NCBI GenBank assembly: GCA_964653715.1
Contig: CAZZGX010000027.1
Coordinates: 1,836 to 65,835 of the forward strand
Length of the DNA: 64,000 bases
DNA from: an uncultured Candidatus Saccharibacteria bacterium
GTDB taxonomy: Bacteria; Patescibacteriota; Minisyncoccia; Ryanbacterales; GWA2-47-10b
Direction: 5' to 3'
The position numbers were made by a program, and so were the translations under genes. Below are positions 3,881 through 26,553 of the stretch, piece by piece. Under the pieces are notes generated by a model. That model ran no database searches. It worked only from the letters and a program-made list of their open reading frames with translations, and was not told the origin of the DNA. How positions within the stretch are numbered: position 1 is the first letter of the stretch; the number at the start of each line of letters is the position of its first letter.

Positions 3881-3882
3881 CT

Positions 3883-5472
3883 ATGGCTTCGATTTCATAT
3901 CTTATAAAAGGGGGAACACTGATCGATGGATCTGGGTTTCCGATGACCCAGGATAATGTTGCTATTTCTGGAGAGACGATCAAAACCGTTGGTGCGGGAA
4001 GTGCTTCTGGCGCTACGCGCGTGATCGATGCTACTGGGAAATACGTAATTCCTGGTATTATTGATATTACGAATCACTCTGACACGCATTGGTCATTGTT
4101 TCTCTCTCCTTCGCAAGAAAGCCTTTTGCGTCAGGGGATAACTACTATTGTGGGTGGAGTATGTGGCTCCTCTCTTGCTCCTCTTGCTGATGCCCAAGCA
4201 ATACGCGCTATCCAAAAATGGACGGATCTTTCTAAAGTAAACATCAACTGGCAAACCCAGGAAGAATTTTTTATGGAGATTGAACGACATGCCCTCGGCG
4301 TTAATTTTGGGACACTCGTGGGGCATGGAACACTGCGCCGCGGAATCGCAAATGATAGAATTGATCAACTTACACCCAGCGAGCTTGAATCCATGAAACT
4401 ATTGCTTCGCAGGTCGCTTGATGAGGGCGCGTTAGGACTCTCGATCGGGCTTACCACAAGCCATGGATCGGTAGCGTCACAAGAAGAAATAATCGGGCTC
4501 GCAAAGGTTGTAACGGAGGCGAGAAAATTTGTCAGTATTCACCTTCGAAATGAGGGGCGTCGCATCCTTTCTTCAGTTGTGGAGGCAGTCAATATTGCGC
4601 GACAGAGCGGCTCACCCGTTCACATAGTGCATTTGAAAGGTATTGGCCGAAAAGCATGGAATGATTTTCGGAAAGCACTCGCGATTATTCGTAAAGCAAC
4701 AAAAGACGAACATCTCCCGATCACGGTTGATTTTTTCCCGTACTTACGAACGGGTTCGCTACTCTACACACTTCTTCCCGAATGGATGCGCGAAGGTGGT
4801 AAAGAAAAAATCTTAAAAGTCTTAGCAAATAAGGAACGACATCCCGAGGTTATCGAGAGTATCCAATCTCTCACGTTACATTATGAAAACATTATCGTTT
4901 CCGAGGCGCATAAAGACAAGCATGCGATAGGAAAATCAATAGCTCGCATTGCCTCTGAATCAGGCCTCACGCCCGAAGAGACGCTTGCGCAACTTCTGAT
5001 TGTGAATGAACTCGGAGTGAGTATTTTTGGGCGGACGTTGCGCGGGAAAAACATTGTTTCGCTCGCAAAGGAATCGTACAGCATGTTCGGCTCGGACGGC
5101 GTTGGCGAAAGCGATTTTGATACAAAAAAGAAAGGCAATCTTACGCATCCCCGTTCATACGGGGCGGCTCCGCGGTTTTTAAATCGTCTTGTGAAACGAG
5201 GCAAGGTTCTCAGCTGGGAAGAAGCGGTACGAAAGATGACTTCCATGCCCGCCGAGCTCCTTGGGCTTAAAGAATCCCACGGGCTCATTAAAAAAGGATA
5301 TGCTGCGGATCTTGTCATTTTTGATCCTGAAGAGCTCACCGATACTGCCACGTATCGTGATCCGTTTCAATATCCGAAAGGCATCGACTATGTTTTTATC
5401 AATGGACGCCTTGCACTTGAAAAAGGAGTTTTTACAGGAGCGCTTGCGGGAAAGATTCTCCGTCAAAGCTAG
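3883..5472 (+). CDS. Amidohydrolase family protein (N-acyl-D-amino-acid deacylase-like, Amidohydro_3)
   Basis: N-terminus GGTLIDGSG...IPGIIDITNHSD and length around 530 aa match D-aminoacylase-like amidohydrolases. The canonical HxH metal motif is degenerate (NHS). Confidence 0.6.
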   Translation: MASISYLIKGGTLIDGSGFPMTQDNVAISGETIKTVGAGSASGATRVIDATGKYVIPGIIDITNHSDTHWSLFLSPSQESLLRQGITTIVGGVCGSSLAPLADAQAIRAIQKWTDLSKVNINWQTQEEFFMEIERHALGVNFGTLVGHGTLRRGIANDRIDQLTPSELESMKLLLRRSLDEGALGLSIGLTTSHGSVASQEEIIGLAKVVTEARKFVSIHLRNEGRRILSSVVEAVNIARQSGSPVHIVHLKGIGRKAWNDFRKALAIIRKATKDEHLPITVDFFPYLRTGSLLYTLLPEWMREGGKEKILKVLANKERHPEVIESIQSLTLHYENIIVSEAHKDKHAIGKSIARIASESGLTPEETLAQLLIVNELGVSIFGRTLRGKNIVSLAKESYSMFGSDGVGESDFDTKKKGNLTHPRSYGAAPRFLNRLVKRGKVLSWEEAVRKMTSMPAELLGLKESHGLIKKGYAADLVIFDPEELTDTATYRDPFQYPKGIDYVFINGRLALEKGVFTGALAGKILRQS

Positions 5473-11804: not shown

Positions 11805-12212
11805 ATTGAGCGCTGCTTCGCATGAGGGCCCCGTCATGCTTCGGAAATGAAGACATGTATTTATAATTATTGATAAATATAGTTGAGGTCTTTTCTCGAG
11901 CAATGTTGGATAGCGCATAAGCGCCAACCGGTCCGATAAAAGACTATTAAATTATTTTTACCGGGAACATGAGGCCCTCGTGCCAAACAACGCATATCAT
12001 TAATGAAAAGAGCTTTTGCTACCAGTCTATCATAGGTAACGCCTAGTATCTTCGTTGAGTTTCAAGAATTTGGGTTATTTTAGTGCAAGAGTTGTGTAAA
12101 AAATGTGCAAAAGGAGAGTATAAAAAGGCTCGAATGCTAAACACGTCGCAAAAGGTATATTGTGCGACCTATTCTCATAGTGAACAAATGACTAGTAAGA
12201 TACACTATCTCT

Positions 12213-13376
12213 ATGCGCGTCAGCTATTCGGCACTTGATACCTACAAAAAGTGCCCGCAAAAGTATAAATTTCAAGAAATAGAAAGGCGAAAAGCCCCAA
12301 AATCCAAAGAGGCCCTTTTTGGGACCGCGGTTCACGAGGCGCTCAAATACATGTTTTCGCGAGATCCCCTCTTTCCGACGCTCGAGGAAGTTCTTGCCAG
12401 TTTTAGGGAAATGTTGGCGGGTTCAAAAATCGCGGATATCGAAAAAAAACGTTACGAGGCATCTGGCGAGAAAATGATTCGGACTTTTTTCGTCAAAAAT
12501 CCGCCGTGGAATTTTACCGTCATTGACCTCGAATCTTGCTTTGAAGTAGCGCTCAATGACGCGCGTACCGGGCGTAATCACGTGCTTGTAGGTAAAATCG
12601 ACCGGATTGACAAGCCGGACGAGCAAACCTACGAAATTATCGATTATAAAACATCTTCCAAGCTTCCTTCCCAGGAAACGGTTGACGAAAACCTCCAGCT
12701 CTCGCTTTATCACCTTGGGATCAAGAAACGCTGGCCACATATCGAGCCCAAAAACGTCATCCTCTCGCTCTATTTCTTGAAAGCGGGAGAGAAGCTCTCG
12801 ACTCACCGTGAGGAAGCGGCACTTCGCGAAACGGAAGAAAAAATCCTTGCCGATATCCGCACCATTGAACAAAAAATGGGAAAGGACGAATTTCCTCCCA
12901 CTCCTTCGGCGCTTTGCAACTGGTGCGGCTACCGCCCCATTTGCCCCGCGTGGCGACATCTTTATGAAAAAGACGCGGCACCGCTCCCTCAAAAAATGGA
13001 GGTTGAGAAGATGATCGGCGATTATGCCCAACTCAAATCAGAGATTGCCGAGCGCGAAGGAGAGCTTAAAAAGATTTCTAGCGCGATTCATGAGTACTTA
13101 AACGAAACTGGTCTCGAGCGGCTTTTTGGCAACTCTCTGGTTCTCGCGCGAAAAATTCAGGAACGCTCCTCGGTGGATCTTGAAAAACTGCAAACCATAC
13201 TTGAGCCCGCCGGACTCTGGCAGCAAGTCCTCGCCCCCGATCCGAAACTTCTCAAAAAACTTCTCCCTACCCTATCGGAAGATATTCAAGAAAAAGTAAA
13301 AGAAGCAATTTTCATCAAAAAATTCACCGTGCTTTCCTTAAGCAAAAAGAAACCAAATGAAAAAGAGCGGCCATAA
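12213..13376 (+). CDS. PD-(D/E)XK nuclease family protein, RecB/Cas4-like with Fe-S cysteine set and C-terminal coiled-coil extension
   Basis: N-terminal Cys (CPQKY) plus a C-terminal CNWCGYRPICPAW triad form a Cas4/AddB-type 4Fe-4S arrangement. Nuclease core GKIDRID ... YEIIDYKTS matches D...(D/E)xK. Confidence 0.7.
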   Translation: MRVSYSALDTYKKCPQKYKFQEIERRKAPKSKEALFGTAVHEALKYMFSRDPLFPTLEEVLASFREMLAGSKIADIEKKRYEASGEKMIRTFFVKNPPWNFTVIDLESCFEVALNDARTGRNHVLVGKIDRIDKPDEQTYEIIDYKTSSKLPSQETVDENLQLSLYHLGIKKRWPHIEPKNVILSLYFLKAGEKLSTHREEAALRETEEKILADIRTIEQKMGKDEFPPTPSALCNWCGYRPICPAWRHLYEKDAAPLPQKMEVEKMIGDYAQLKSEIAEREGELKKISSAIHEYLNETGLERLFGNSLVLARKIQERSSVDLEKLQTILEPAGLWQQVLAPDPKLLKKLLPTLSEDIQEKVKEAIFIKKFTVLSLSKKKPNEKERP

Positions 13377-13401
13377 TCCTTGTCTTGGCGTCAAACGGAT
13401 T

Positions 13402-13740
13402 TCAGAGGCAGGTTTTGGAGCGGTCGAAGCCGGCTTTTTGGGCCTCTAGTTCTGACGAAAAGTAGATTTTGTTTTCGTCTTTGATGTTGGTCTTGCAATC
13501 AATTGGATAGTATTTCTGTCCGGTGCGGCTTGCCATATAGAGCATATCCTCTACGGGACTCCCTGCGTCCTTATTTGGAATTTCAAAGGCACGCTCGTTA
13601 TATCGAATCGGGAATCTTTTTGTAGAAATCGTATAAAGGCGAAGCCCACCCGCGATGCAAAGGACCAAAAGAAAAACCGCGAGAAATGTAAAGAGCGGCT
13701 CTTGCCAGCCCTTGATTTTTTCTTTCAGGTCGGGTATCAT
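13402..13740 (-). CDS. Membrane-anchored protein with Ada-like (Ada_Zn_binding-fold) domain, Cys set degenerate
   Basis: N-terminal TM, then YYPIDCKTNIKDENKIYFSSELEAQKAGFDRSKTC. This resembles the Ada N-terminal pattern Y..C......EN..F.S..EA..AGFRPCK.C, but only two of four Cys are present. Start moved to the internal ATG (13740) so the rpmA promoter region stays free. Confidence 0.4.
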   Translation of the reverse strand: MIPDLKEKIKGWQEPLFTFLAVFLLVLCIAGGLRLYTISTKRFPIRYNERAFEIPNKDAGSPVEDMLYMASRTGQKYYPIDCKTNIKDENKIYFSSELEAQKAGFDRSKTCL

Positions 13741-13778
13741 ACGAAACAACGTTAGCAAATATAATAATTTAGGCAATT

Positions 13779-14051
13779 ATGGCGCATACTAAAGCCGGAG
13801 GGTCTACACAAAACCTTCGCGACTCACAACCAAAATTCCTCGGTGTAAAGCTCTTTGCAGGTGAAAAAGCTCAACCCGGGTCTATTATCATCCGCCAGCG
13901 CGGCACGCGATTTATGGCAGGATCAAACGTCCGAACGGGCAAAGATCATACGCTCTATGCCATCAAAGAGGGTGTCGTGAAATTCTCTCGAAAGCGCAAA
14001 ATACGTTTCGATGGCAATACTGTGCATCGCAACGTAGTCAGCGTCGGATAA
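13779..14051 (+). CDS. rpmA: 50S ribosomal protein L27
   Basis: [24 protein letters not shown]... is a canonical L27 N-terminus. Confidence 0.95.
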
Positions 14052-14077
14052 AAAAAAAGAGGACAGAGTCCTCTATC
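14051..14077. terminator. Bidirectional intrinsic terminator (A8 - AGAGGAC/GTCCTCT hairpin)
   Basis: Perfect 7-bp stem flanked by an A-run on plus and a T-run on minus. It ends the rpmA transcript and the pyrG-side minus transcript. Confidence 0.6.
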
Positions 14078-14249
14078 TTGGCGACTTTTGCAAGGAGCCA
14101 CATTTGGAGCAGGTATATAAAATTCCGGCGCCGTGTGTAGCCATTATTTGAGCATCACAACAATCACTTCTTTCGGCAACTTTGCCTTTTGAAGTTTCTG
14201 TAACGCCTCGAGACTTTGCATTTTCGATCTCGATAATCTTTGACTTCAT
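14073..14249 (-). CDS. Small (58 aa) putative zinc-ribbon protein, not in ORF track
   Basis: Hand translation: MKSKIIEIENAKSRGVTETSKGKVAERSDCCDAQIMATHGAGILYTCSKCGSLQKSPR. GGAGGTGGG lies immediately 5' of the ATG. The stop is embedded in an intrinsic terminator hairpin (AGAGGAC-AGA-GTCCTCT) followed by T8 on the minus strand. Confidence 0.4.
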   Translation of the reverse strand: MKSKIIEIENAKSRGVTETSKGKVAERSDCCDAQIMATHGAGILYTCSKCGSLQKSPR

Positions 14250-14273
14250 CCCACCTCCGAAAGAACTCTTTTG

Positions 14274-15947
14274 TTATATTTTACGTTTTATCTTGGCTCG
14301 TGGCAATGACGTATCTTTCGCGCGCTTATTTTTAATCGCGGCCTTGATAAATTCGCGAAAAAGTGGGTGTGGAACAAGCGGCCGTGATAAAAATTCGGGG
14401 TGAAATTGAACACCAAGAAAAAATGGGTGCTCTTTGATCTCTGCGATTTCGACTAATTTTTGCTGGGGATTGATGCCTGAGATGATAAGGCCCTTTTTTT
14501 CAAGTCGCCCAAGTAGTTTCGAGTTGACTTCATAGCGATGGCGATGGCGCTCTTTGATTTTTGGAAGGCTATACGCGCGCTCAGCGATTGTGCCTTTTAT
14601 AATCCTGCAATCATAGAGCCCAAGACGCATCGAGCCCCCGTAATGTTTTTGAGAAATAAGCGCTTCTTGCTCAGGAAGGATATCAATAACGGGATAAGGC
14701 GTTTTTTTGTCGATCTCGGTTGTATGCGCGTGGGCCATTCGGGCAACATTTCGCGCGAACTCAACCACCATAAGCTGCATCCCATAGCAAAGGCCAAAAT
14801 AGGGTATTTTTTCGTGCCGGCAAAATTCTATAACTTTAATTTTACCCTCAATCCCCCGTCCCCCGAAACCACCAGGAACTACAATGCCGTCATAAAGTTT
14901 TAGATCCTTGAGCGCGCGGGGATTTTTTTCATACTCTTCGGCATCGAGCCAGTGAAGCTCTGGTTCGCGCTTAAAAAACCATGTAGCATGCTTGAGCGCC
15001 TCTATAACGGAAATGTATGAGTCGGCAAGCGAAAAGGAGCCTGTCGAGAAGTATTTCCCGACGATGCCAATCTTTACGGTAGACTTTCCCGGCTTGCGGA
15101 TCACCGTTACCAAGCGGCGCCACTCTTTGAGGTCAGTCTTTTTTTTCTTGAGGCCTAACTTTTTGAGGACAAGGCCCCCGAGGTTATCTTTTTCAAAATT
15201 AAGCGGTACCTCATAGATTGAATCGATGTCGGGTGCTGAGATAATATCCTCTTCGTTGAGATTTGAGGCGACCGAAAGTTTGCGCTTTCGCGGAAGATCA
15301 AGTGGTTCGGAGGCGCGCGCTAAAATGATGTCAGGCTGGATTCCGGCAGCGTTGAGTGTCCGGACGGCGTATTGTGTGGGTTTGGTTTTCATCTCGCCAA
15401 TTTTGTCCGGAATCGGCAAGTAGCTGACCATGACAAAAAGAACGTCTTTTGGATGGCGGAGTTTCATCATGCGCGCCGCTTCCAGAAAAAGAAGATTTTG
15501 GTACTCCCCTACCGTGCCGCCGATTTCGATTAAAAGAATATCAGCGTGATCTTTTTTCTGCGCGCGCTCGATCCTAGAGATTATCTCTTCGGGGATGTGG
15601 GGTACCACCTCAACGCATTTTCCGTCGTATTCAAGACTGCGTTCTTTTTCAATCACCGACTGATACACCATCCCAGTCGTCATGTAATTGACACGAAAGA
15701 GCGACCGATTTAAAAAACGTTCGTAATTGCCGATATCCTGATCGCACTCGAGCCCGTCGCTCGTCACGAACACCTCTCCGTGCTCAGTAGGATTCATCGT
15801 TCCCGCGTCAACGTTAATATAGGGGTCAATTTTCATCGCCGAAACACGAAAACCGTAGGACTGAAGAATTTTTCCAAGCGATGAGGTGGCAATTCCCTTG
15901 CCAATCCCCGACATCACTCCACCCGTTACAAAAATAAACTTGTTCAT
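14274..15947 (-). CDS. pyrG: CTP synthase
   Basis: N-terminus MNKFIFVTGGVMSGIGKGI and a C-terminal glutamine amidotransferase domain (GLCYGMQ). Confidence 0.95.
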   Translation of the reverse strand: MNKFIFVTGGVMSGIGKGIATSSLGKILQSYGFRVSAMKIDPYINVDAGTMNPTEHGEVFVTSDGLECDQDIGNYERFLNRSLFRVNYMTTGMVYQSVIEKERSLEYDGKCVEVVPHIPEEIISRIERAQKKDHADILLIEIGGTVGEYQNLLFLEAARMMKLRHPKDVLFVMVSYLPIPDKIGEMKTKPTQYAVRTLNAAGIQPDIILARASEPLDLPRKRKLSVASNLNEEDIISAPDIDSIYEVPLNFEKDNLGGLVLKKLGLKKKKTDLKEWRRLVTVIRKPGKSTVKIGIVGKYFSTGSFSLADSYISVIEALKHATWFFKREPELHWLDAEEYEKNPRALKDLKLYDGIVVPGGFGGRGIEGKIKVIEFCRHEKIPYFGLCYGMQLMVVEFARNVARMAHAHTTEIDKKTPYPVIDILPEQEALISQKHYGGSMRLGLYDCRIIKGTIAERAYSLPKIKERHRHRYEVNSKLLGRLEKKGLIISGINPQQKLVEIAEIKEHPFFLGVQFHPEFLSRPLVPHPLFREFIKAAIKNKRAKDTSLPRAKIKRKI

Positions 15948-16384
15948 ACTGGGTTTATTCTTACACGAATAGGAATTTTTTTCTTCCCAAGCCGGATCGT
16001 GATCATGTGTTCGCCAGCCGTTTTAAGCGGTAACCCCTCAATTTCTTCATCTTTAATAAAAGAAAAGCCGGAGCGGTGAAGCAGTAGTGCCGCTTCCTCC
16101 TTGGTAAACGCCGCGAATAAATGCCCTTTTTCGTTCACCTTTTTATGTACTTCGAGAGTAACATCTGAAAGGCGTGTTTCATATTCATAGCGCGCCTCGA
16201 GCTTTTTTTCCTTATTTTTTGCAATAGACTCTCGACGCGTTGCCGCGTCATGAATTGAGGATGCGTCAGCTAACCGTGCCAGCCCTTCTCGGATTAAATA
16301 GTTTCTGCCGTAGCCGTCCTTAACCTCGACTACCTCGCCTTTTTGCCCAACCCGGGCGATATCTTTGAGGAGAAGGACTCTCAT
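15944..16384 (-). CDS. rplI: 50S ribosomal protein L9
   Basis: MRVLLLKDIARVGQKGEVVEVKDGYGRNYLI matches the L9 N-domain. Confidence 0.9.
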   Translation of the reverse strand: MRVLLLKDIARVGQKGEVVEVKDGYGRNYLIREGLARLADASSIHDAATRRESIAKNKEKKLEARYEYETRLSDVTLEVHKKVNEKGHLFAAFTKEEAALLLHRSGFSFIKDEEIEGLPLKTAGEHMITIRLGKKKIPIRVRINPV

Positions 16385-16385
16385 G

Positions 16386-17588
16386 TTAACGAGATCGCAA
16401 GTACACTATGGCTTTCTCGAGTACTGGATCCTCGCCGGGCTTTACGTCGTCAGGAACTTTTACTTCAATGTCAGGCGTAAGTCCTTCTTTAGAAATCGAT
16501 TTGCCCTTGGGCGTCAGCCACTTGGCGATGGTAATTTTAAGCGATGTATTAGGAGTGATGTCTTCGAGCTGCTGAACGGAACCTTTGCCAAACGTTTTTT
16601 CGCCCATTAAGATGGCCTTTCCGTGCTCCTGCAAGGCACCTGATAAAATTTCGGCAGCCGATGCCGTACCGCGATCTATGAGTACAACCGTAGGTATGTG
16701 CTCAAGCGCACGGTATCCCACACTTCGAAAAATATCAGGTTTTCCCTCGCGATACACTTCCTGTGCGACCACGTCTCCTTCCGGTAAAAACCAGCTCGCG
16801 ATATCAACAGCCGAGCTGAAAAATCCTCCTGGATTGTTGCGAAGATCAATGATGAGCTTTTTCGCACCCGAATTAAGAAACGTTCGCACCGCATCTCCAA
16901 ACTCGGGACCCGACTTCTCCGAGAAACTCGCTACGTGAATAATAAATATCCCCTCTTTGGTTTCAGTAGTAATAATCGGCACTTTAATAACATCACGCAT
17001 CACCTCCACAACCCGCGGCTTGTCTTCATTGACGCGAAGAATAGTCAATGTAACTTTCGTGCCGCGTTCTCCCCGGATTTTATGCACCGCCTCATCCAAA
17101 GAAAGATCGTTTGTAAATGTATCATCTATTTTTAAAATTTTATCCCCCGCTTTGAGCCCGGCTTTCTCCGCGGGCGAACCTTTAATCGGGGCAATTACCG
17201 TTAGAATTTCCTTACGGACACCGATCTCGGCTCCGATGCCAGAAAATTCACCTTTTATCTCGCTTTGAAAATCCTGCAGATCAGCGGGTGGAAAAAATGT
17301 TGAGTAGGGATCACCAAAGCTTTTCACCATTCCCTCGATAGCTCCCCATACGAGGGCCTGCCGGTTCACGGGCTCGTCCCCCACATGCTTGGCCTCCATA
17401 AGCCTCCAGGCCTTCCAGAATGGCTCGAAATCGACAGAATCGGCCTCTGGCGCGTTTTTGTTGAGCACGCCTAGAATGTGAGCCACTTCGGGACGCGTCT
17501 GATACCCATACAAGGCCCCAAAACTAAAAGAAGCGCCAACGATAACGAACGCAAGCACTATAACAAAGATAGATTTTCCTCTCGCCAT
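16386..17588 (-). CDS. ctpA: Carboxyl-terminal processing protease (S41)
   Basis: N-terminal TM, PDZ domain, S41 catalytic region (GxSxSAAE-like TASAAEIL) and a lysine dyad. Confidence 0.85.
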   Translation of the reverse strand: MARGKSIFVIVLAFVIVGASFSFGALYGYQTRPEVAHILGVLNKNAPEADSVDFEPFWKAWRLMEAKHVGDEPVNRQALVWGAIEGMVKSFGDPYSTFFPPADLQDFQSEIKGEFSGIGAEIGVRKEILTVIAPIKGSPAEKAGLKAGDKILKIDDTFTNDLSLDEAVHKIRGERGTKVTLTILRVNEDKPRVVEVMRDVIKVPIITTETKEGIFIIHVASFSEKSGPEFGDAVRTFLNSGAKKLIIDLRNNPGGFFSSAVDIASWFLPEGDVVAQEVYREGKPDIFRSVGYRALEHIPTVVLIDRGTASAAEILSGALQEHGKAILMGEKTFGKGSVQQLEDITPNTSLKITIAKWLTPKGKSISKEGLTPDIEVKVPDDVKPGEDPVLEKAIVYLRSR

Positions 17589-17652
17589 GTACGAATACTA
17601 GTATCTCAAATAATTTTATCTGAAGCAAGAAGTCGTGGTATGATTACGGTAT

Positions 17653-18561
17653 ATGGAAAAAGTTGCCTCGCGGCACGTGACATGGGTGGATGTCGAAAAT
17701 CCCACGGAAGCTGAAATCAAGATGCTTTCGCTCAAACATATGATCCATCCGCTTGCCGCCCGTGAAATGCAGATTACCACCTACCGTCCCAAACTAGAGC
17801 GCTATGAAGAGCATCTCTATCTTGTCCTTCACTTTCCCGTATTTGAACCAAAAGCAAGCTCGAGTCAAAGCCGCGAAATTGATTTTTTAATTTTTCCCTA
17901 CACACTTGTAACCGTCCACTACGAACCAATCCCGCAGCTCGATGATTATCAAAAACTTCTCGCCGAACATGAAGCAATTCGGGAACGGACGTTTGGCTCC
18001 TCAAGCGGCCACCTGCTCTACAACATCATCAGCCAGCTCTTCGCGGTTTCACGCAAAGATCTCGACTTCATAGAATCCAAAATCAAAAATATCGAGGAAC
18101 GCGTGTTTAATGGAGACGGGCGGGTGCTACGTGAAATTGCCCTCTTGCGCAGAGACATCCTCAATTTTCAGAAAGCGTTGAAACCGCAACAAACCGTACT
18201 CGATTCGCTTGAAGAGCACGGCAAACAGTTTTTTGGTCAAGACATGAAACCTTATTTCAGCGATATTAAGGGCGCCTACATACAGATCTGGAACTCGGTT
18301 GAAAATTTGAGGGAAACGCTGGACACGCTTTATGAAACCATTACTTCACTTATCGCCTCAAATACCAATGAAATTATTAAAACGCTCACCGTTTTTACTC
18401 TTGTCGTCATGCCAATCTCGCTGATTGCGTTTATTTTTTCTATGGATATTCCCGGCGTCCCGCTCAAAAATAACCCTAATGCTTTCTGGATTGTAACGAG
18501 CAGTATGATTGGGCTCTCATTGATCATCTATAACATTTTCAAACAAAAGAAATGGCTCTAG
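17653..18561 (+). CDS. corA: CorA family divalent cation transporter (GMN motif replaced by SMD)
   Basis: CorA-like cytoplasmic N-domain and two C-terminal TM helices. The signature position reads FIFSMDIP rather than YGMNF. An extended -10 (TGGTATGAT) sits about 11 nt upstream of the ATG, suggesting a near-leaderless transcript. Confidence 0.65.
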   Translation: MEKVASRHVTWVDVENPTEAEIKMLSLKHMIHPLAAREMQITTYRPKLERYEEHLYLVLHFPVFEPKASSSQSREIDFLIFPYTLVTVHYEPIPQLDDYQKLLAEHEAIRERTFGSSSGHLLYNIISQLFAVSRKDLDFIESKIKNIEERVFNGDGRVLREIALLRRDILNFQKALKPQQTVLDSLEEHGKQFFGQDMKPYFSDIKGAYIQIWNSVENLRETLDTLYETITSLIASNTNEIIKTLTVFTLVVMPISLIAFIFSMDIPGVPLKNNPNAFWIVTSSMIGLSLIIYNIFKQKKWL

Positions 18562-19922
18562 TGTTGTTCAACACTCTTTCAAGAAAGAAAGAGAAATTTA
18601 ATGTTCCCAAATTCCGTTCTGTCAAGCTCTATACCTGCGGGCCGACCGTATATCGTTCGCAACATATCGGAAATTATCGTACCTATATTTTTGAAGATAT
18701 TCTCAAACGGACCCTACTGCTCAACGGATACCGCGTACATCACATTACAAACGTCACTGATGTCGGGCACTTAACGTCTGATGATGACACGGGAAAGGAT
18801 AAAATCGAAAATGAAGCGCGCCGTATCCATAAAAATGCTTGGGACATTGCGAGACAATTCGAAAACGAATTTAAAAGCGACTCACGGGCGCTCAATATCC
18901 TCCCCCCTCAAAAATATGTCCGCGCCACCGATCACATCGTCGAACAGATTGCACTTATTAAAAAATTGGAGTCAAAAGGATATGTATACACAACAGGAGA
19001 CGGTTTATACTTTGATACTTCAAAAGTGAAAAATTATGGGGCACTCGCTGGGCGAGCTGCCGCGAGCACACGCGAGGGCTCTCGAGTAGAGATACGAAAA
19101 AAACGTCATGCGATGGATTTTGCGCTCTGGAAATTCTCTCCTGCTAGCGAGAAAAAACAAATGGAATGGTCCTCTCCGTGGGGCATCGGCTTTCCGGGGT
19201 GGCATATCGAGTGTTCCGCGATGAGCATGAAATATCTCGGCCCGACGCTCGATATCCACGCGGGAGGTACCGACCACATACAAATTCACCATCCCAATGA
19301 AATCGCGCAATCAGAAGCCGTAACTGGTAAAATATTTTCCCGTTTTTGGATGCACGGCGCGTTTCTTACGATCAAGGGAAGTAAAATGGCAAAATCCTCG
19401 CCCGAAACAAACCTGACGCTTGAGATGCTCCGGGAACACGCTTTTGATCCTCTTGATTTTCGATATCTCACGCTCGGAACACATTATCGTAAACCCCTAT
19501 CATTTAGCTGGGAAGCGCTGCGAGGGGCTCGTAATTCGCGGCTTAAACTCTTGGCTTCGTATAAAAATTTAAAAAAGCAAAAAGGCGCAAAAGACTCGAT
19601 ATTGAAAAAGGTCGTCCTCAAAGAACTCTCGGACGATTTGAATGCGCCAAAAGCACTCTCTTCTCTTTGGAAATACCACGAAAACATTTCGCAACACGCG
19701 GTTCTCTCTATAGACCATGCGTTTGGACTTGGTTTCAAAAAAGAATCAGAGAAAATCCGAAATCGAGTAATTCCTAATACAATAACAATCCTAGTTCAGG
19801 AACGAGAACGGTATCGCAAGGGAAAAAAATGGCAGAAGGCTGATCGCATCCGCCAAAAAATTGTAAAGGAGGGTTATACCATTGAGGATACCCCGTCCGG
19901 ACCGTTCGTACACAAGATATAA
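18552..19922 (+). CDS. cysS: Cysteinyl-tRNA synthetase
   Basis: YTCGPTVY...HIGN (HIGH-type) and KMAKS motifs, plus zinc-binding Cys residues. Confidence 0.9.
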   Translation: MALVLFNTLSRKKEKFNVPKFRSVKLYTCGPTVYRSQHIGNYRTYIFEDILKRTLLLNGYRVHHITNVTDVGHLTSDDDTGKDKIENEARRIHKNAWDIARQFENEFKSDSRALNILPPQKYVRATDHIVEQIALIKKLESKGYVYTTGDGLYFDTSKVKNYGALAGRAAASTREGSRVEIRKKRHAMDFALWKFSPASEKKQMEWSSPWGIGFPGWHIECSAMSMKYLGPTLDIHAGGTDHIQIHHPNEIAQSEAVTGKIFSRFWMHGAFLTIKGSKMAKSSPETNLTLEMLREHAFDPLDFRYLTLGTHYRKPLSFSWEALRGARNSRLKLLASYKNLKKQKGAKDSILKKVVLKELSDDLNAPKALSSLWKYHENISQHAVLSIDHAFGLGFKKESEKIRNRVIPNTITILVQERERYRKGKKWQKADRIRQKIVKEGYTIEDTPSGPFVHKI

Positions 19923-19980
19923 AGCTTTTCTAAACAAAAATTGGTTGCTACACCTTTGCACGTTCGGGTAGCATAGTACT

Positions 19981-21318
19981 ATGCCCGATCCGCTAAAAAT
20001 TCCTCCTCATTCCAAAGAAGCAGAAATGGCCGTCTTGGGATCAGTGATGATCGACCGAAACGCGATTACGCGCGTGGTCGATATTTTGCTGCCGGATGAT
20101 TTTTATCACAATGAACACGGCATCATTTGGACGACTATGATGAATCTATTCGATAAAAGCGCTCCGCTTGATATTCTTGCTGTTCAAGGACATCTCACCG
20201 AGCGCGGACTTCTTGAACGCGCAGGCAACGCGAGCTATCTCGCAACCCTCGTCAATTCAGTCGCGAGCGCTGGAAGTATCACTCACTACGCTGAAATCGT
20301 GAAAAAAAAGCGGGTGTTGAGGGATCTTATTACATCCGCGCACCACATTGGCGATCTTGGTTATCAGGAAGGAGAAGATATTGAACTCTTGCTCGACGAA
20401 GCGGAACGAAAAATATTTTCAATTTCCCAGCATTCCCTTCGTCAACGCTTCGCGCCTGTTCGCGACGCGCTCACGGAAGCATGGGAACGAATCGACATGC
20501 TTCACAAAGGCAAAGGAACGCTCCGCGGTGTGCCGACCGGATTTGAAAAACTAGATAATATTTTATCGGGACTTCAAAAATCAGACCTCGTCGTGCTTGC
20601 CGCGCGTCCATCGCTCGGGAAAACCGCGTTGGCGCTTGATATCGTGCGCAACGCCGCCGTCAATCACAAAATTCCGGTTGCTATTTTTTCGCTTGAAATG
20701 TCAACCCAGCAACTCGTTGATCGTTTCATCGCGGCAGAAGCCCATGTGGATCTCTGGAAACTCCGCACGGGAAACCTCTCGGAAACCTCAAATGATTTCC
20801 AGAGAATCAACGACGCGCTTTCGCGCCTTGCCGAGGCCCCAATCTATATTGATGACGCAGCTACGAGCTCGGTTCTTCAGATGCGTGCGATGGCGCGACG
20901 GCTACAAGCTGAAGTCCCGCTCGGTCTTATTGTCGTCGATTATCTGCAGCTCATGCAGCCCCGACAGATTTCTGACAGTATGGTCCAGCAAATCACTGAG
21001 ATCTCGCGCTCGCTCAAGCAACTAGCACGCGAGCTTGATGTGCCCGTGCTTGCGCTTTCGCAGCTTTCGCGCGCGGTTGAGCAACGTCATCCTCCCATTC
21101 CAAGGCTGTCGGATCTTCGAGAATCCGGATCTATTGAGCAGGACGCTGACGTGGTCATGTTTATTTATCGGGAAGATAAAGTAAAACGAGATTCAAATCG
21201 TCCGAATATCGCGGAGATTTTAGTAGAAAAACACCGCAACGGGCCTACCGGACGAACAGAGCTCTATTTCAACGCCGAGAAAGTTAGTTTTTCCTCGCTT
21301 GATGAAACCTTTATATAA
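19981..21318 (+). CDS. dnaB: Replicative DNA helicase
   Basis: DnaB N-domain (KEAEMAVLGSVMID) and RecA-like P-loop (ARPSLGKTALALDI). Confidence 0.95.
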   Translation: MPDPLKIPPHSKEAEMAVLGSVMIDRNAITRVVDILLPDDFYHNEHGIIWTTMMNLFDKSAPLDILAVQGHLTERGLLERAGNASYLATLVNSVASAGSITHYAEIVKKKRVLRDLITSAHHIGDLGYQEGEDIELLLDEAERKIFSISQHSLRQRFAPVRDALTEAWERIDMLHKGKGTLRGVPTGFEKLDNILSGLQKSDLVVLAARPSLGKTALALDIVRNAAVNHKIPVAIFSLEMSTQQLVDRFIAAEAHVDLWKLRTGNLSETSNDFQRINDALSRLAEAPIYIDDAATSSVLQMRAMARRLQAEVPLGLIVVDYLQLMQPRQISDSMVQQITEISRSLKQLARELDVPVLALSQLSRAVEQRHPPIPRLSDLRESGSIEQDADVVMFIYREDKVKRDSNRPNIAEILVEKHRNGPTGRTELYFNAEKVSFSSLDETFI

Positions 21319-21319
21319 C

Positions 21320-21937
21320 ATGCACCCCGATCCAATACAAAAAATCATAGAATACTTCATGCGGCTCCCGGGCATTGGCCCGCGCCAAGCGTCTCGCTTT
21401 GCCTATACGTTGCTCGATGAGGATAAAAGGACAATCGAGGGCTTTGGAAACGCGCTTAAGGATCTTGAAAAACACGTCGGTCGCTGTAGCGAGTGTTTCC
21501 GAAGTATTACGAAAAAAAATGGCGAAGAAATATGCGCCGCGTGTAGTGTCGAATCGCTCACCGCCATTTTAGTGGTCGAAAAAGATCAGGATCTCGAAAC
21601 AATTGCCAAGAGCGGCATTTGGGAGGGCGCGTATCATGTACTTGGCGGCACTATCTCGCTTCTTAACGAAAAAACACGTGTTACCGAACGAATTCGAACT
21701 CTCTATGAACGCCTTGAAAGGCGACTTAAGAAAAAAAATTCCATAGAGATTGTACTCGCGACATCGGCAACGACAGAGGGTGATTCGACGGCACTCTACA
21801 TAGAGCGGGTGCTTGAGCCTTTCACGAAGGAGAAGAAAATAACCTTGTCGCGTCTCGGAAGAGGCATCTCCACGGGGACTGAGATGGAGTACGCTGACCC
21901 GCAAACCTTAAAAAATGCCTTTAAAAACAGAAAATAA
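21320..21937 (+). CDS. recR: Recombination protein RecR
   Basis: HhH (RLPGIGPRQASRFAY), C4 zinc finger (CSEC...C..C) and Toprim region. Start set at ATG 21320, immediately after the dnaB stop. Confidence 0.9.
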   Translation: MHPDPIQKIIEYFMRLPGIGPRQASRFAYTLLDEDKRTIEGFGNALKDLEKHVGRCSECFRSITKKNGEEICAACSVESLTAILVVEKDQDLETIAKSGIWEGAYHVLGGTISLLNEKTRVTERIRTLYERLERRLKKKNSIEIVLATSATTEGDSTALYIERVLEPFTKEKKITLSRLGRGISTGTEMEYADPQTLKNAFKNRK

Positions 21938-21944
21938 AAACATC

Positions 21945-21975
21945 TTTACATTCTTTTTTTACGGTGTAGAAATAA
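21945..21975 (+). promoter_or_regulatory. Putative sigma70 promoter (TTTACA - 16 nt - TAGAAAT) for the orphan toxin gene
   Basis: Hexamer spacing read directly from the sequence. It is followed by a GGAGGGAGGA SD. Confidence 0.4.
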
Positions 21976-21994
21976 ATAAGACGTGGAGGGAGGA

Positions 21995-22270
21995 ATGACA
22001 AAGCTCGACATTACGTTGAGTGCAGACAAAGAACTCCAATCCATATGCTGTAAAAGACAAGTAGATCAAGTGAGTCGTACGATCCTTGATATCGCGAGTG
22101 ACCCATTTATGCGTGAGACACGGGATCTCGAAAATAATCCGGGAGTGCGGTATATCGCGGTTGAGAACTTTTATATATTATATTATGTAGCCGAATCTGC
22201 GGGAGAGGACAAGCCCCGCCTAGTCAGTATTATGGGAGTTCTCAACGGCCCCTATCATCCACTTCACTAA
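21995..22270 (+). CDS. RelE/ParE-family toxin-like protein (orphan, no cognate antitoxin ORF adjacent)
   Basis: A 91-aa protein with the ParE/RelE pattern ...NNPGVRYIAVENFYILYYVAE...RLVSIMGV. It has its own SD and promoter. Start corrected from 21983 to ATG 21995, because MEGG is the SD. Confidence 0.55.
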   Translation: MTKLDITLSADKELQSICCKRQVDQVSRTILDIASDPFMRETRDLENNPGVRYIAVENFYILYYVAESAGEDKPRLVSIMGVLNGPYHPLH

Positions 22271-22294
22271 AGACCGGACCACGGTCTTTTTTTT
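22271..22294 (+). terminator. Intrinsic terminator (AGACCG-GACCA-CGGTCT + T8)
   Basis: Hairpin plus U-run directly after the toxin stop codon. Confidence 0.7.
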
Positions 22295-22358
22295 CGACAA
22301 AAACCGTAATACGTGTTAGAGTCCTGGATAGAAAACCTACGACAGGAGGACAAACAGA

Positions 22359-22970
22359 ATGACCCGCACGCTTGTCGCCGCACTTGCTCTTTTCATCATC
22401 GCCACCAGTTCACATGCTCTTGTCCTTTGCACATCTTCGCGCGGTACCGAAACAATCCGTATTCGAAATGTATGCTCGAAAAACGAACTACAACTCGACC
22501 CCGTTGCTCTCGGGCTTCAAGGACCAAAAGGTGACCCGGGTATCAACCCGATACCCTGTGCTTCGCAAATTGGCAACGAAGTATACTTCGAAGAATGTAA
22601 CGTAAACATTCGAAACGGGAGTGGTGCTACGGATGGAGTACTGAATGGTTTAGGTAATTTGGTAATTGGCTACAACGAGGACCTAAATAATCATAGTGTT
22701 CGAACGGGTTCTCATAATATTGTTGTGGGGAGTAACCACTCATATTCGAGTTTTGGTGGACTGGTTTCTGGTGCCTGGAACACAGTCAGCGGTCCAGCAA
22801 GCTCAGTTATTGGTGGCTATCAAAATATCGCCAGTGGCTGCGCATCTTCTATCACCGGCGGAAATGGCAATTTAGCCCAAGGATGCTATTCATCTGTCAG
22901 TGGTGGGCATGAACGGTCTGTCTACGAAACTAGCAACTGGGCCGCTGGTAATCTCTTCGAACCAAATTAG
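22359..22970 (+). CDS. Secreted protein with collagen-like G-x-y triplets and YadA-head/tail-fibre-like beta-helical Ser/Gly repeats
   Basis: Signal peptide MTRTLVAALALFIIATSSHA, a GLQGPKGDPG triplet run, then periodic N.a.G..SS..GG..N.asG repeats. Strong SD ACAGGAGGA. Confidence 0.6.
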   Translation: MTRTLVAALALFIIATSSHALVLCTSSRGTETIRIRNVCSKNELQLDPVALGLQGPKGDPGINPIPCASQIGNEVYFEECNVNIRNGSGATDGVLNGLGNLVIGYNEDLNNHSVRTGSHNIVVGSNHSYSSFGGLVSGAWNTVSGPASSVIGGYQNIASGCASSITGGNGNLAQGCYSSVSGGHERSVYETSNWAAGNLFEPN

Positions 22971-23048
22971 TTACACAACTTCACGCCCCTCGCAAACCAG
23001 CGATGGGCTTTTTTTATTCAATTGATTAGTTTTTCTGTCTTAACAAAA

Positions 23049-23072
23049 TAAAAAAACCTCCCTGAGGGGAGG
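23049..23072 (-). terminator. Intrinsic terminator for the minus-strand paralog pair (CCTCCC-TGA-GGGAGG preceded by A7 on plus)
   Basis: Hairpin plus T-run when read on the minus strand, 30 nt past the 23100 stop. Confidence 0.55.
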
Positions 23073-23099
23073 TTCGTTCCGACTTTGTTTTCTTCTGTT

Positions 23100-23450
23100 T
23101 CATTGTTTTTCCGCAAAAGCGGCGCCAGATGTGATACCCAGTCCTTTTCGCAGGTAGCCAGCATCAATCCCAAGCGCGTCGCAAACATTTTCGAATGAGT
23201 ACGGCCACGTTCTATCAACGCTCTCGAACCACTGCCATGCCTCGTGCCAAATTGTACGCCTTTTGACGCTGGGGATACTCTTGTATTCTTGGTAGATCTT
23301 AATGGTACCTTCGAGCAGAGCTAACATAAGTTTTTTCTCGGGCCTGATGTTTACGCGGCTCGTTCGGCGAAAATCATCACACTGAGATGGAAGAAAGTCA
23401 TCCAAGGCGCTTAAGGTCCGCCGAACCCGAGTGCTACGAATATTACTCAT
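23100..23450 (-). CDS. Hypothetical protein, paralog A of a tandem pair (shared C-terminal motif FxNVCDxLGIDAxYLRxGL ... AAFAEK)
   Basis: 116 aa. Clear similarity to the adjacent ORF (LMLALLEGTIKIY / LMLAVLENGIKDY; YSFENVCDALGIDAGYLRKGL / FSFLNICDKLRINADYLRSGL). Confidence 0.55.
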   Translation of the reverse strand: MSNIRSTRVRRTLSALDDFLPSQCDDFRRTSRVNIRPEKKLMLALLEGTIKIYQEYKSIPSVKRRTIWHEAWQWFESVDRTWPYSFENVCDALGIDAGYLRKGLGITSGAAFAEKQ

Positions 23451-23892
23451 TGGCTTCTTCTTTTTCAGCTAAGAAAAAGGCGGATGGAAGCTTCGAAAAA
23501 ACATTGGTTCTGCCTCTATTTATTTTTTTCTTTAGAAGTCCGGAACGCAAATAGTCAGCGTTAATCCGCAATTTGTCGCATATATTCAGAAAAGAAAACA
23601 GCAATTCTGATTCATTAGAAAATATCCAACTTTCAGCTTTCTTTTCTAAACGACGACGACACCTGGAGTCCTGGTAATCATGAAGACCTTGAGCGTTCTT
23701 ACCCAAATAGTCCTTGATACCATTTTCTAGAACCGCAAGCATGAGCGCTTCTTCGCCAGTCCGGAATAGAGTCTTATTCATATCCGCAAGCTGACTAGGC
23801 AGTATGATCGCGGACTCGAACAAGCTATTGATTATTTCCTCTACAGCCTCATCGCGTAGCTCATAGGTATACCTCAATGCCGAACGATTCAT
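23443..23892 (-). CDS. Hypothetical protein, paralog B of the tandem pair
   Basis: 149 aa from ATG 23892, preceded by GGGAGGAGGGGG. The ORF-track N-terminus (to 24111) is antisense read-through of tRNA-Lys and was trimmed. Confidence 0.55.
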   Translation of the reverse strand: MNRSALRYTYELRDEAVEEIINSLFESAIILPSQLADMNKTLFRTGEEALMLAVLENGIKDYLGKNAQGLHDYQDSRCRRRLEKKAESWIFSNESELLFSFLNICDKLRINADYLRSGLLKKKINRGRTNVFSKLPSAFFLAEKEEANE

Positions 23893-23972
23893 ATCCCCCT
23901 CCTCCCAATGACGATGAACTTTCGAAAATACATTACCATAGGTATGTGAAGTTTGTCGAATTCCATCCCAAC

Positions 23973-24045
23973 TCCGCCCGGCAGGAATCGAACCTGCGAC
24001 CATCTCCTTAAAAGGGAGCTGCTCTACCGACTGAGCTACGGGCGG
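23973..24045 (-). tRNA. tRNA-Lys (anticodon UUU), CCA not encoded
   Basis: Hand-folded cloverleaf: D-arm TAGCTCAGTCGGTAGAGCA, anticodon loop CTTTTAA, variable loop TGGTC, T-arm GCAGGTTCGATTCCTGC (near-identical to E. coli tRNA-Lys), acceptor CCGCCCG/CGGGCGG, discriminator A. Confidence 0.85.
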
Positions 24046-24059
24046 AGTTGGGAAACAAT

Positions 24060-24512
24060 TTATCGTGAGCGCGATATCAGAAAAAGGCCTATGAGGGGCA
24101 TGACCATCCAAAAAAGAAACGCGTTGTTGCCGCTAAAAAAGGCTAATGTGAGCGGCGAGAACTTTACTATACCACGGAATGAAAGTAAGTTCAATGTACC
24201 TGCCATAAAAAGTCCGATCGCGAGAAAACTCGCGATAAACGATTGCCACCATTTGTATGAGGCGCGCTCGGCACGCAATATCACGCGATCAAAAAACAAA
24301 AAAAGGACAAGCATAAGCCCAGCGTAGAAAGAAAGGTTACGGTATATATGGTAGTCAATCTTATATTCGTCAAAAAGCTTGAAGAACAGCGGACTTAAAA
24401 AGAGGGAAAGATATGTGGCAAGCATAAAAGAAAGAAGTTTTGTCTTGCCGTTTCCCATCATTCCGCCGATAAGCCCCGCCAGCAAAAAAATAAAACGAGG
24501 AGCGCATCCCAC
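24060..24512 (-). CDS. Hypothetical polytopic membrane protein
   Basis: Four predicted TM segments and no recognisable motif. Start uncertain. Confidence 0.4.
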   Translation of the reverse strand: MGCAPRFIFLLAGLIGGMMGNGKTKLLSFMLATYLSLFLSPLFFKLFDEYKIDYHIYRNLSFYAGLMLVLFLFFDRVILRAERASYKWWQSFIASFLAIGLFMAGTLNLLSFRGIVKFSPLTLAFFSGNNAFLFWMVMPLIGLFLISRSR

Positions 24513-24559: not shown

Positions 24560-25612
24560 CTACAATCCTTCTCGTCCGAGCTCTTCGGCAAGCGTCTTAA
24601 GCCGAGGAGTCAATTTTTTTGGCATCTTGATTTTCACTTCGATCAAGAGATCTCCTCGAGATCCGTTTTCGCGGAGAACTCCCTTTCCACCCACTTTAAG
24701 AATCTCGCCGTCAACAACTCCTTGCGGAATTTTCAATTTGAGAGAGCCGTCAAGAGTCGAGATAACGTGAGAACCACCGAGCAACGCTTCCGAAAGAGGC
24801 GTATTGAGTTGCATGAGTAAATCATTGCGTGAACGTTTGAACACTGGGTGGGCTAAGACTCGGACTTTGACATACAAGTCCCCAGCCTCCCCATTTCGTT
24901 GCGCCTCACCTTTATGCGGAATTCGCACGACCTCACCGTTTTCAATACCGGGAGGAATCATAATTCGAATTTCTTCACCGCGCGCGACTACTCCCTCACT
25001 ATGACACGAAGCACACTTTTTTTCCGGGATTTTCCCTTCACCATGGCACGTTTGGCATTCAATGACTTGCGTAAAATTTCCAAAAAACGAGCGCCGCGTG
25101 TCGCGAATAGTCCCAGCGCCGTGGCATTTGCTACACGTGGTCTCGCTTGATTCTTTCGCGCGTCCGGATCCTTTGCACGTTTCGCATAAAACGCGCTTTC
25201 GTATAAGCACGCGCCGCTCGGCTCCAAATACCGATTCGGCAAATGGAATATCGATATCAATCGAAATATCACGCCCACGCCTTTTTGTACTTGTCCCTCC
25301 CCCAGCGCCGCCGAAAAAAGACTCAAAAATGTCTCCCATATCAACATCTTCAAATCCGCGAAAAGACCCAAAATCCCAGCCACTAGGCGCTCCTCCGGGA
25401 CTACCATCAGCAACGCGCCCAAATTGATCATACTGCGCGCGTTTTTGATCATTAGATAGTACCTGGTAGGCTTCATTGACCTCTTTGAATTTTTTTTCAT
25501 CCCCTCCAGTTTTATCGGGATGAAACTGGTGCGCCAACTTGCGGTAGGCCTTTTTAATCTCCTCCTTGGAGGCACTTCGCACCACGCCTAGAATTTCATA
25601 ATAGTTTTTCAT
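24560..25612 (-). CDS. dnaJ: Molecular chaperone DnaJ
   Basis: J-domain (YYEILGV...HPD), G/F region and four CxxCxGxG zinc-finger repeats. Confidence 0.95.
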
Positions 25613-26553
25613 GTAAGAGAGTGGGTTCCGAGCTCAACAGTTATTGTTCTCAATTCTACAACTTTATACCGAAGAAGCAATTGGAGAATAAGAAATGCGC
25701 AAAAAACGACAAGCCAGTTTATGAAAAACGCGATGAAACGGAGCAGTACGAAAAGACCTACAGCAAAGGCAACAGGAAAAAGATTCTTATACGAAACCAG
25801 TTGATTTTCAATCATACGAATGCCAATTTGATAAAAAATATAAGAAACGGAATCGTTTGATTGAATGGCAACACCAGTTTTTTTACCAAGACTTGCCACT
25901 CCCTGTTCGATAAGAAGCGACCGCTCCACCGGGCTAAAAGATTCCGGACTTTTTTTGAGATCGGCTGCCGCTACGCGCACAATATATTCTGCAAGCGAAA
26001 TATCTTTTTGAAACCCCGGCATAATCTTTGTAATAGCAGGCTCTCCCCACCCAATCAAACGGATAAAAAGACTCTCCGGCACAATTTTTTTGAAATCCGG
26101 TGATGTGTTGGGGACTGTCACATACGAAGCCATGGCTACAAGAACCGCCAAAAACGTCGTGGTAAGCGGTATAGCCTTACGAAGTGGTCTTGTGATTCCT
26201 GCCTTGATAACCAGTTGCATTTCTCTCCGCGCCCGGAAATAACCGACGACACCAAAGAAAAAAAGAAGAAGAGAGGCCACGAGTAACGAGAAATCTTGGT
26301 ACCAAAAAAATACCGTAAACGAAGAAATTGCCCACGCGATTACAAAAACCCACGAGCGCTCAATGAGAAGAATCGCAAGCGCTAAAACCGTCAACTGGAG
26401 CAATACGGCAATCACGCTACTCCAGAAAACCGCCGTGAACTGCCACTCTGGAAGTAGGAAATAGACTGAAAGTGAAAGCCAAAAAAGTAACGAGGTAGGG
26501 ATGATAAAAAAGACAAGAACGAGTTCCTTATTTTCCGGGCTCATTCGTTTCAT
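25609..26553 (-). CDS. Hypothetical membrane protein encoded between dnaK and dnaJ
   Basis: Several TM helices and no recognisable motif. It overlaps both neighbours, so it is co-transcribed with the heat-shock operon. Confidence 0.5.

Follow-up and report, generated by a model that had tools for sequence, protein, structure and literature searches.

Three kinds of described proteins are the closest points of comparison for two adjacent open reading frames (ORFs), ORF A and ORF B, which lie directly downstream of a tRNA-Lys gene in contig CAZZGX010000027.1 of an uncultured bacterium of the Ryanbacterales (positions 1,836–65,835; this whole 64-kb stretch of DNA is here called the window). These are the small stand-alone helix-turn-helix (HTH) proteins, such as the HTH_17 excisionase/MerR-type and the HTH_8 Fis-type proteins; the Firmicutes protein YlaN/Fpa/FurA (UPF0358), an anti-repressor of Fur (PMC11559061); and the domain-of-unknown-function (DUF) families of Pfam.

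The family to which ORF A and ORF B belong shares with the small HTH proteins its size, its all-helical make-up and a cytoplasmic location. Its C-terminal pattern ...(A/C)xxLG(I/L/F)(D/S)xxx(L/V)R..L... matches the HTH template, with a basic tail added, and many of its paralogs have, like HTH regulators, a palindromic site over what appears to be their own promoter. Unlike the HTH proteins, the family gives no significant sequence, profile or fold match, has an extra conserved N-terminal helix (E..LMLAVLEDA) and linear motif (F-Q/E-P-D-x-L-L-P-x-Q-Y/F), and keeps its putative recognition helix nearly invariant among paralogs. YlaN/Fpa is likewise small and all-helical, and one subgroup of the family adjoins the gene for the metalloregulator Rrf2 in an iron-sulfur (Fe-S) operon, but the family belongs to a different lineage and has no link to Fur or Rrf2 in the window. 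Homology to YlaN/UPF0358 was rejected, with 7% identity, no sequence relationship and a resemblance such as any helical bundle would give. As with DUF-type families, members number in the thousands and come from uncultured bacteria, a genome can hold more than one paralog, and no experimental data exist. Yet none of the Pfam, NCBIfam or PHROGs models searched covers the family, despite its 12,343 clusters.

ORF A and ORF B are true paralogs. BLASTP aligns them with 39% identity over 93 aa (E = 9e-14), a significant match that agrees with the tandem paralogs of an unrecognised family proposed in the original prediction, which was made from the DNA letters alone. The two blocks on which that proposal relied, LMLA(V/L)LE and (F/Y)SF.N(I/V)CD.L.I.A.YLR.GL, are present in both proteins and turn out to be family-wide motifs. 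A profile built from A and B found 91 proteins in a word-indexed search, all unnamed or annotated as "hypothetical protein" and none with a Pfam domain. An exhaustive hidden Markov model (HMM) search of 1.84 billion cluster representatives (clusters at 50% identity) yielded 12,343 proteins with E ≤ 1e-3, of which 7,270 have E ≤ 1e-10 and 607 have E ≤ 1e-30; the best 150 of the 12,343 are all 118–242 aa long.

The family consists of small cytoplasmic proteins (120–240 aa) with a conserved four-helix domain of ∼80 aa. The first part of the consensus reads ..LF(Q/E)PDxLLPxQ(Y/F)F..(L)xPE(K/R)(R)LMLAVLEDA(I/V)xCFQ....R(R)LFxEAExWI and the second ..D..WxFSFEN(I/V)CxxLG(L/F/I)D(P/A)xYLRxGLxxWK, followed by a variable, strongly basic tail. 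In a typical member the core has a mean charge of −3.2 and the C-terminal tail one of +7.0 over about 39 aa; the tail is typical of the family rather than universal. C105 is conserved in 99% of the members and R116 in 98%.

No significant match to A, B or 63 family members was found in Pfam, NCBIfam or PHROGs (the best PHROGs matches had E > 0.01), and PADLOC gave none for A and B. Sequence and profile searches of the PDB, including a sub-profile of helices 2–4, identified no related solved structure. The best match, at E ∼ 1, was to DinJ, with the motif F.NVCD.MGL. A literature search for the motif strings of the family returned no paper. The family is thus large and undescribed, with no Pfam, NCBIfam or PHROG model in the library copies searched, and the original prediction was right to call it unrecognised.

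Within the family A and B are divergent. They retain all of the near-invariant residues (E47, L50, A53, L55, W89, F101, C105, R116, and L119), while P27, D57, A58, and W122 are gone from both, as is the greater part of the basic tail. Of the N-terminal motif only the L-P-S-Q part is left: P27 is found in 86% of the family, and D28, found in 83%, is gone from A and kept in B as D17. ORF A, the upstream copy, is the more divergent of the two (family HMM scores of 81 bits for A and 103 bits for B, which is nearer to the consensus) and has an 11-aa insertion in the loop between helices 1 and 2. Its C-terminal tail is moderately basic (+3 over 30 aa); ORF B has almost no tail (0 over 12 aa) and a basic N-terminus (+5). 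Both proteins form singleton clusters without close relatives, and the best homolog of both is P0003, with 45% identity to A and 48% to B. The C-terminal motif AF(FL)AEK occurs in A and B only among 256 family sequences, and is the only evidence suggesting that the two share an origin.

A genome scan (one genome per species) with the single peptide pattern MLAVLEDA gave 355 confirmed loci. Taxon labels, taken from record titles, as well as synteny groups and copy counts refer to the best 80 of these. The label Candidatus Binatia, Binatota or Binatus applies to 29 of the 80, and 34 are from "Deltaproteobacteria" metagenome-assembled genomes (MAGs) of soil or groundwater, several of which share synteny with the Binatia-labelled loci. 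Thermodesulfobacteriota account for five loci, other labels for 12, and Patescibacteria for none. The family has its home mainly in Candidatus Binatia, a lineage of soil and groundwater (for background on the Binatota, see PMC8262859). Ten assemblies contribute two each of the 80 loci, and at 18/80 loci two copies lie within 10 kb of each other, in tandem or divergent. When the neighbors were clustered, at least six conserved synteny groups emerged, each consisting of housekeeping genes. Apart from group I, which is described below, the neighbors include genes for PurM-like proteins, UvrD/PcrA, GshA-like proteins, HU, and others of this kind; housekeeping genes also surround the family gene on four long metagenome contigs. 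No tRNA gene lies within 1 kb of the family gene at any of 84 other loci, and tRNA association, which the original prediction suggested looking for, was rejected as a property of the family.

At several Binatia-type loci two family genes stand in tandem on the same strand. In these pairs the upstream copy belongs to a distinct, divergent subfamily (..ELSLLWTVFSDGIETFRKEV..SIFSFDRLCELF.LNP.KVRRSLL.WR), and the copies are separated by gaps of roughly 120–630 nt, with no overlap, unlike A and B.

A search for k-mers enriched upstream of the family genes at Binatia-type loci brought out a composite element, (G/A)ATAAG-N5-CT(A/T)AT-N17-TTTT(T)CAT, in which the first two boxes form a 15-bp palindrome. 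The exact palindrome AT[AT]AG-N5-CT[AT]AT was found 24 times in 841 kb, whereas Markov simulations averaged 0.5 occurrences and never exceeded 2. Each of the 24 copies has the orientation of a family core and precedes it by 190–270 nt. The copies span three paralog groups, and 24 of 100 family genes carry the exact element. With one mismatch allowed, the element is found at 28/100 family genes and at eight sites elsewhere. In group V a TTGnnn box lies 16–17 nt upstream of the GATAAG half-site, a spacing that would put both the −10 region and the start site under the palindrome. The palindrome looks like an autoregulatory operator and is the best indirect support for DNA binding by the family.

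AlphaFold2, run with the family alignment, predicts with confidence a core of four helices (residues 46–63, 76–90, 101–107, and 112–132). The predicted local distance difference test (pLDDT) score is 76.6 for the full protein and 84.5 for residues 40–135, with a predicted template modeling (pTM) score of 0.72, and the core of ORF A exceeds a pLDDT of 90. Foldseek gave no match better than E = 2, and bS20, YlaN, terpene synthases, and HEAT-type repeats were unconvincing as fold candidates. Helices 3–4 have the pattern F-S-F-E-N-V/I-C-x-x-L-G-h-D-x-x-Y-L-R-x-G-L, which fits the classical 20-residue HTH template, as judged by inspection of alignment column frequencies. The small residue at template position 5 is C105, position 9 in the turn is G109 (72%; ORF A has an Arg here), and positions 4, 8, 10, and 15 are hydrophobic (I/V104, L108, I/L/F110, and L/V/I115). 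The second HTH helix exposes the invariant R116, at a position that commonly contacts DNA, between variable neighbors. Sub-threshold matches to HTH_Tnp_ISL3, HTH_17, and HTH_20 were seen in 4/63 members (E 0.025–0.09). The label "HTH-like" that the original prediction gave to the C-terminal block is therefore plausible as far as the residue template goes, but has no significant HTH profile or fold match behind it.

The arrangement of the two genes is consistent with joint expression (Table 1). The ORFs and the adjacent tRNA-Lys gene are where the original prediction had placed them, and the Shine-Dalgarno tract of ORF A, GGGAGGAGGGGG, is as exceptionally strong as it had claimed. It had also rightly corrected the mechanical ORF list, which merges ORF A with antisense tRNA sequence by extending A back across the tRNA gene to a TTG at 24111. 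In the public annotation ORF A (P0001, 186 aa) likewise starts too far upstream, at a position calculated to fall within the tRNA gene. The ATG at 23892 is the better start, since it is preceded by GGGAGGAGGGGG and gives an N-terminus equal in length to those of the homologs. ORF A stops with TAA and ORF B starts with ATG within their overlap, ATGAGTAA. As ORF B also has no good Shine-Dalgarno site of its own, translational coupling of the two is likely. The hairpin that follows ORF B likely marks the end of the transcription unit. A scan of the region found no terminator-like site between tRNA-Lys and ORF A, and the only promoter match in the region, which is not above shuffle expectation, lies upstream of the tRNA gene. 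A tRNA-Lys-A-B co-transcript, perhaps from this promoter, is thus possible. Rfam identified only the tRNA in this region of the window.

We tentatively favor the explanation that A and B encode two small DNA-binding regulators that are translated together, and would put its chances at slightly less than even. The two genes would form an operon, probably co-transcribed with or just after tRNA-Lys and ending at the terminator after B, and their ORFs are probably translationally coupled. The proteins would most likely bind specific DNA sequences as dimers and act as small transcriptional regulators, in this case as an A/B heterodimer or as mixed homodimers produced in a fixed ratio. In its home lineage, mainly Binatia, the family has more than one locus per genome, each copy with its own conserved chromosomal neighborhood. 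For about a quarter of the copies, a family-specific palindromic candidate operator over their own promoter would imply autoregulation. If this is true, a family of more than 12,000 clusters without a library model gains a name and a testable function, and ATAAG-N5-CTAAT becomes a ready candidate binding site for the uncultured phylum Binatia. It adds no new biological principle; the gain is in annotation and in a lead for regulator studies. A small-regulator function, ordinary in itself, is most probable, and it is the phyletic pattern (Binatia-type genomes and one Ryanbacteria lineage) and the operator motif that are worth following.

Several observations weigh against this explanation. The family palindrome does not occur in the 64-kb window, where the sequence upstream of ORF A shows just a weak inverted repeat around TTTCGAAA; at the loci that do carry the palindrome, it could be bound by another factor than the family protein. 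Fold searches against solved structures gave no match to HTH proteins, and no Pfam HTH model gave a significant profile match. Homology to Fis was rejected, as hhalign aligned only 15 columns (LGI..G.LR..L) with a probability of 0.75% to an E. coli Fis sequence. From paralog to paralog the putative recognition helix hardly changes (Y114, L115, R116, G118, and L119), which would be unusual if every paralog had its own DNA target. Three features usual in the family, W122, the F-x-P-D motif and, for the greater part, the basic tail, are missing from A and B themselves, and their sisterhood was recovered in only 67/200 neighbor-joining bootstraps (34%). Finally, the apparent absence of the family from related Ryanbacteria was seen in fragments of their genomes.

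The family proteins might instead bind a protein, as small anti-repressors or co-regulators, e.g., of an Rrf2/IscR-type regulator, in the way that YlaN/Fpa relieves repression by Fur (PMC11559061). We consider this unlikely, though more probable than the other alternatives. In synteny group I (about 25/80 loci) the gene order is cysteine desulfurase-IscA/SufA-SufB-cysteine desulfurase-Rrf2-family gene-acyltransferase, so that the family gene follows Rrf2 in an Fe-S operon. At the 12 loci measured, its first candidate start is ≤67 nt from the Rrf2 stop, and at one locus the two overlap by 7 nt. P0003, the closest homolog of A and B, is encoded on a contig with 70% GC and also stands directly after an Rrf2 gene, i.e., in the group I context. 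In addition, the surface-type residues E47, E56/D57, and R116, conserved in all paralogs, together with the near-invariant Cys suggest one common partner or ligand. Against this, the 64-kb window has no gene for Rrf2, SufB or cysteine desulfurase, in most synteny groups the family gene does not adjoin a regulator gene, and the family-specific palindrome upstream of standalone copies is more simply explained by DNA binding.

The origin of the pair can be approached from the genes around it. The DnaB and DnaJ proteins of the window are 80–84% and 70–81% identical, respectively, to proteins that include those of Candidatus Ryanbacteria and Patescibacteria MAGs, and the window is part of a Ryanbacteria (Patescibacteria) genome. 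Positions 12160–21960 are collinear with three related loci (CorA-CysS-DnaB-RecR), where tblastx similarity ends at about 21960, and past RecR the relatives go on with L21 and RmuC. On the other side, the order HrcA-GrpE-DnaK-(314-aa ORF)-DnaJ-membrane protein-tRNA-Lys is kept in the relatives. After tRNA-Lys, one of these (L106) continues with a 134-aa gene in convergent orientation and with an M17 peptidase, and in another (L105) the 122 nt following the tRNA look, by eye, unrelated to the window. Between these two blocks is a segment that holds B and A as well as a ParE-like ORF of 95 aa and a putatively secreted, beta-roll-like protein (Table 1). The family HMM gave no match in the related Ryanbacteria loci examined, and a metagenome scan with the membrane protein adjoining tRNA-Lys returned one short contig. 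The G+C content of the window is flat at 46%, and that of A (41%) and B (49%) is host-like.

Because A and B have no close relatives and their segment is missing from related genomes, they were most likely acquired horizontally. As their base composition is now host-like, the acquisition would have been an old one, followed by amelioration and fast divergence. Gene exchange by horizontal transfer into Patescibacteria has been described in general (PMC12455944). One could go further and see in the family an autoregulated DNA-binding class with an unsolved fold that expanded to several paralogs per genome in Binatia, the isolated, ameliorated copies in one Ryanbacteria lineage being a transfer from a Binatia-like organism and Binatia a physical partner or host of this bacterium, but we find this doubtful. 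Patescibacteria are thought to depend on host bacteria, and their hosts are mostly unidentified. A gene pair with relatives only in Binatia-type genomes would be a small clue to the exchange partners of Patescibacteria.

It is improbable, in our view, that the proteins bind RNA and regulate post-transcriptionally, e.g., through their own structured 5′ leader. The C-terminal tails typical of the family are strongly basic and probably disordered, and the Binatia paralogs have putative 80–150-nt leaders with a hairpin around the conserved loop ..GCTTTTTCAT... The TTTTCAT box of the composite element (..GC(G/T)TTTTCAT..) forms the loop of this hairpin, which lies about 20–45 nt past the palindrome and whose arms covary in groups III and V (CTGCGGG/CCCGCAG, TTCCCGG/CCGGGAA, and AAGAAAG/CTTTCT). 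This suggests a structured leader RNA or, alternatively, a DNA hairpin. However, what is strictly conserved upstream of the genes is a palindrome of the DNA type that overlaps a promoter. A and B lack such a leader, and their basic tails are reduced or absent. Rfam gave no match to the hairpin or leader at 12 Binatia-type loci.

Even less probable is that A and B are decaying, non-functional remnants of a transferred gene pair. They are long branches, with a mean distance to other members of 1.26–1.28 compared with 1.04 for a typical pair, and the missing close relatives and the lost conserved positions listed above would fit decay. But both frames are intact with all near-invariant core residues, the very strong Shine-Dalgarno tract and the start/stop overlap are kept, a terminator follows, and base composition has had time to adapt without either frame being lost.

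The original prediction had also raised the possibility of an anti-defense protein or regulator of a mobile genetic element. As a description of the family, this is largely refuted. A tblastn search against 50,697 phage records and 72,556 plasmid records gave no match, and IMG/VR gave three matches in 2.9 million viral contigs compared with 355 in genome contigs, the latter found with a narrower pattern. A few phage-borne relatives thus exist. Two of the IMG/VR contigs, both with about 60% G+C, encode the family core within a longer frame. On one of these (L097) the gene cluster around the frame also encodes a large terminase, a DNA methylase-like protein and a portal protein of the Mu type, while the other (L096) carries an HNH endonuclease. 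In the window there is no integrase among the neighbors of A and B, and the 3′ 23-mer of the tRNA occurs only once even with three mismatches allowed, so that no att repeat was found. That A and B are anti-defense or element-regulating cargo of a decayed integrative element at tRNA-Lys is very improbable, since their position directly 3′ of the tRNA gene in a ∼2-kb segment missing from relatives, the nearby sub-threshold ParE-toxin-like ORF (E 0.014) and the three viral contigs are set against the missing integrase and tRNA repeat, an unshifted base composition, the lack of PADLOC and significant PHROG matches, the near-absence from phage, plasmid and viral sets, and the housekeeping, tRNA-free neighborhoods seen elsewhere. 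In the genome of the window, the tRNA adjacency may still reflect how A and B arrived, as the pair is in a variable segment beside the tRNA.

Table 1. Coordinates of the features discussed, in the window (positions only) and at other loci (L handle and positions where given).
Feature	Position	Strand	Detail	Basis
ORF A	23443–23892	minus	149 aa, ATG at 23892	ORF list and translation
ORF B	23100–23450	minus	116 aa	ORF list and translation
Overlap of ORF A and ORF B, ATGAGTAA	23443–23450	minus	8 nt; ORF B start codon inside the end of ORF A	read from sequence
Shine-Dalgarno tract, GGGAGGAGGGGG	23895–23906	minus	ends 2 nt upstream of the ORF A ATG	read from sequence
Intrinsic-terminator-like hairpin and T-run	23054–23075	minus	25 nt past the ORF B stop	consensus match only
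tRNA-Lys(UUU)	23972–24046	minus	79 nt upstream of ORF A	ARAGORN; Rfam tRNA, 71.8 bits
Sigma-70-like promoter, TTGAAC-17-TATAGT with TG	24166–24194	minus	upstream of tRNA-Lys	consensus match
Segment without counterpart in the related loci examined	21961–23971		∼2 kb, between the RecR and tRNA-Lys blocks	
ParE-toxin-like ORF	21983–22270	plus	95 aa, just after recR	sub-threshold match
ORF with putative signal peptide	22359–22970	plus	203 aa	
Predicted membrane-protein ORF	24060–24512		150 aa	
Terminator-like hairpin in the membrane-protein ORF	24217–24236	minus		
ORF between dnaK and dnaJ	25609–26553	minus	∼310 aa	
Counterparts of this ORF in related Ryanbacteria	L105:4070–5014; L106:197–1120; L107:7060–8004			
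Palindrome, loci 1	L019, L028, L035, L037–L039, L047, L049–L051, L055–L057		e.g., L038:4734–4748	
Palindrome, loci 2	L062, L063, L066, L068, L076, L077, L083, L085, L086, L091, L092			
Hairpin past the palindrome, example	L076:4755–4795			
Binatia-type tandem same-strand pairs	L028, L035, L037, L049, L056, L068 (about 3800–5300)			
Family core in a longer frame, IMG/VR	L097:4596–5747		383 aa	
Family core in a longer frame, IMG/VR	L096:4650–5270			

The other genes near the pair gave some minor observations. The ParE-toxin match of the ORF after recR scores 16.4 bits against a cut-off of 23 and covers profile positions 3–72 of 89; no antitoxin gene is evident. The 203-aa ORF that follows has a hydrophobic N-terminus resembling a signal peptide and a Gly/Asn/Ser-rich repeat with a below-threshold match to the grass antifreeze beta-roll (PF21300, E 1.4e-5). 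The terminator-like hairpin inside the predicted membrane-protein ORF is either a spurious match of the scan or a sign that the boundaries of this ORF are off; its homologs in the relatives have 165–167 aa. The ∼310-aa ORF between dnaK and dnaJ has no Pfam match and is conserved at this position in related Ryanbacteria; in L105, L107 and the window it overlaps both dnaK and dnaJ. Such an additional gene is unusual in the hrcA-grpE-dnaK-dnaJ operon.

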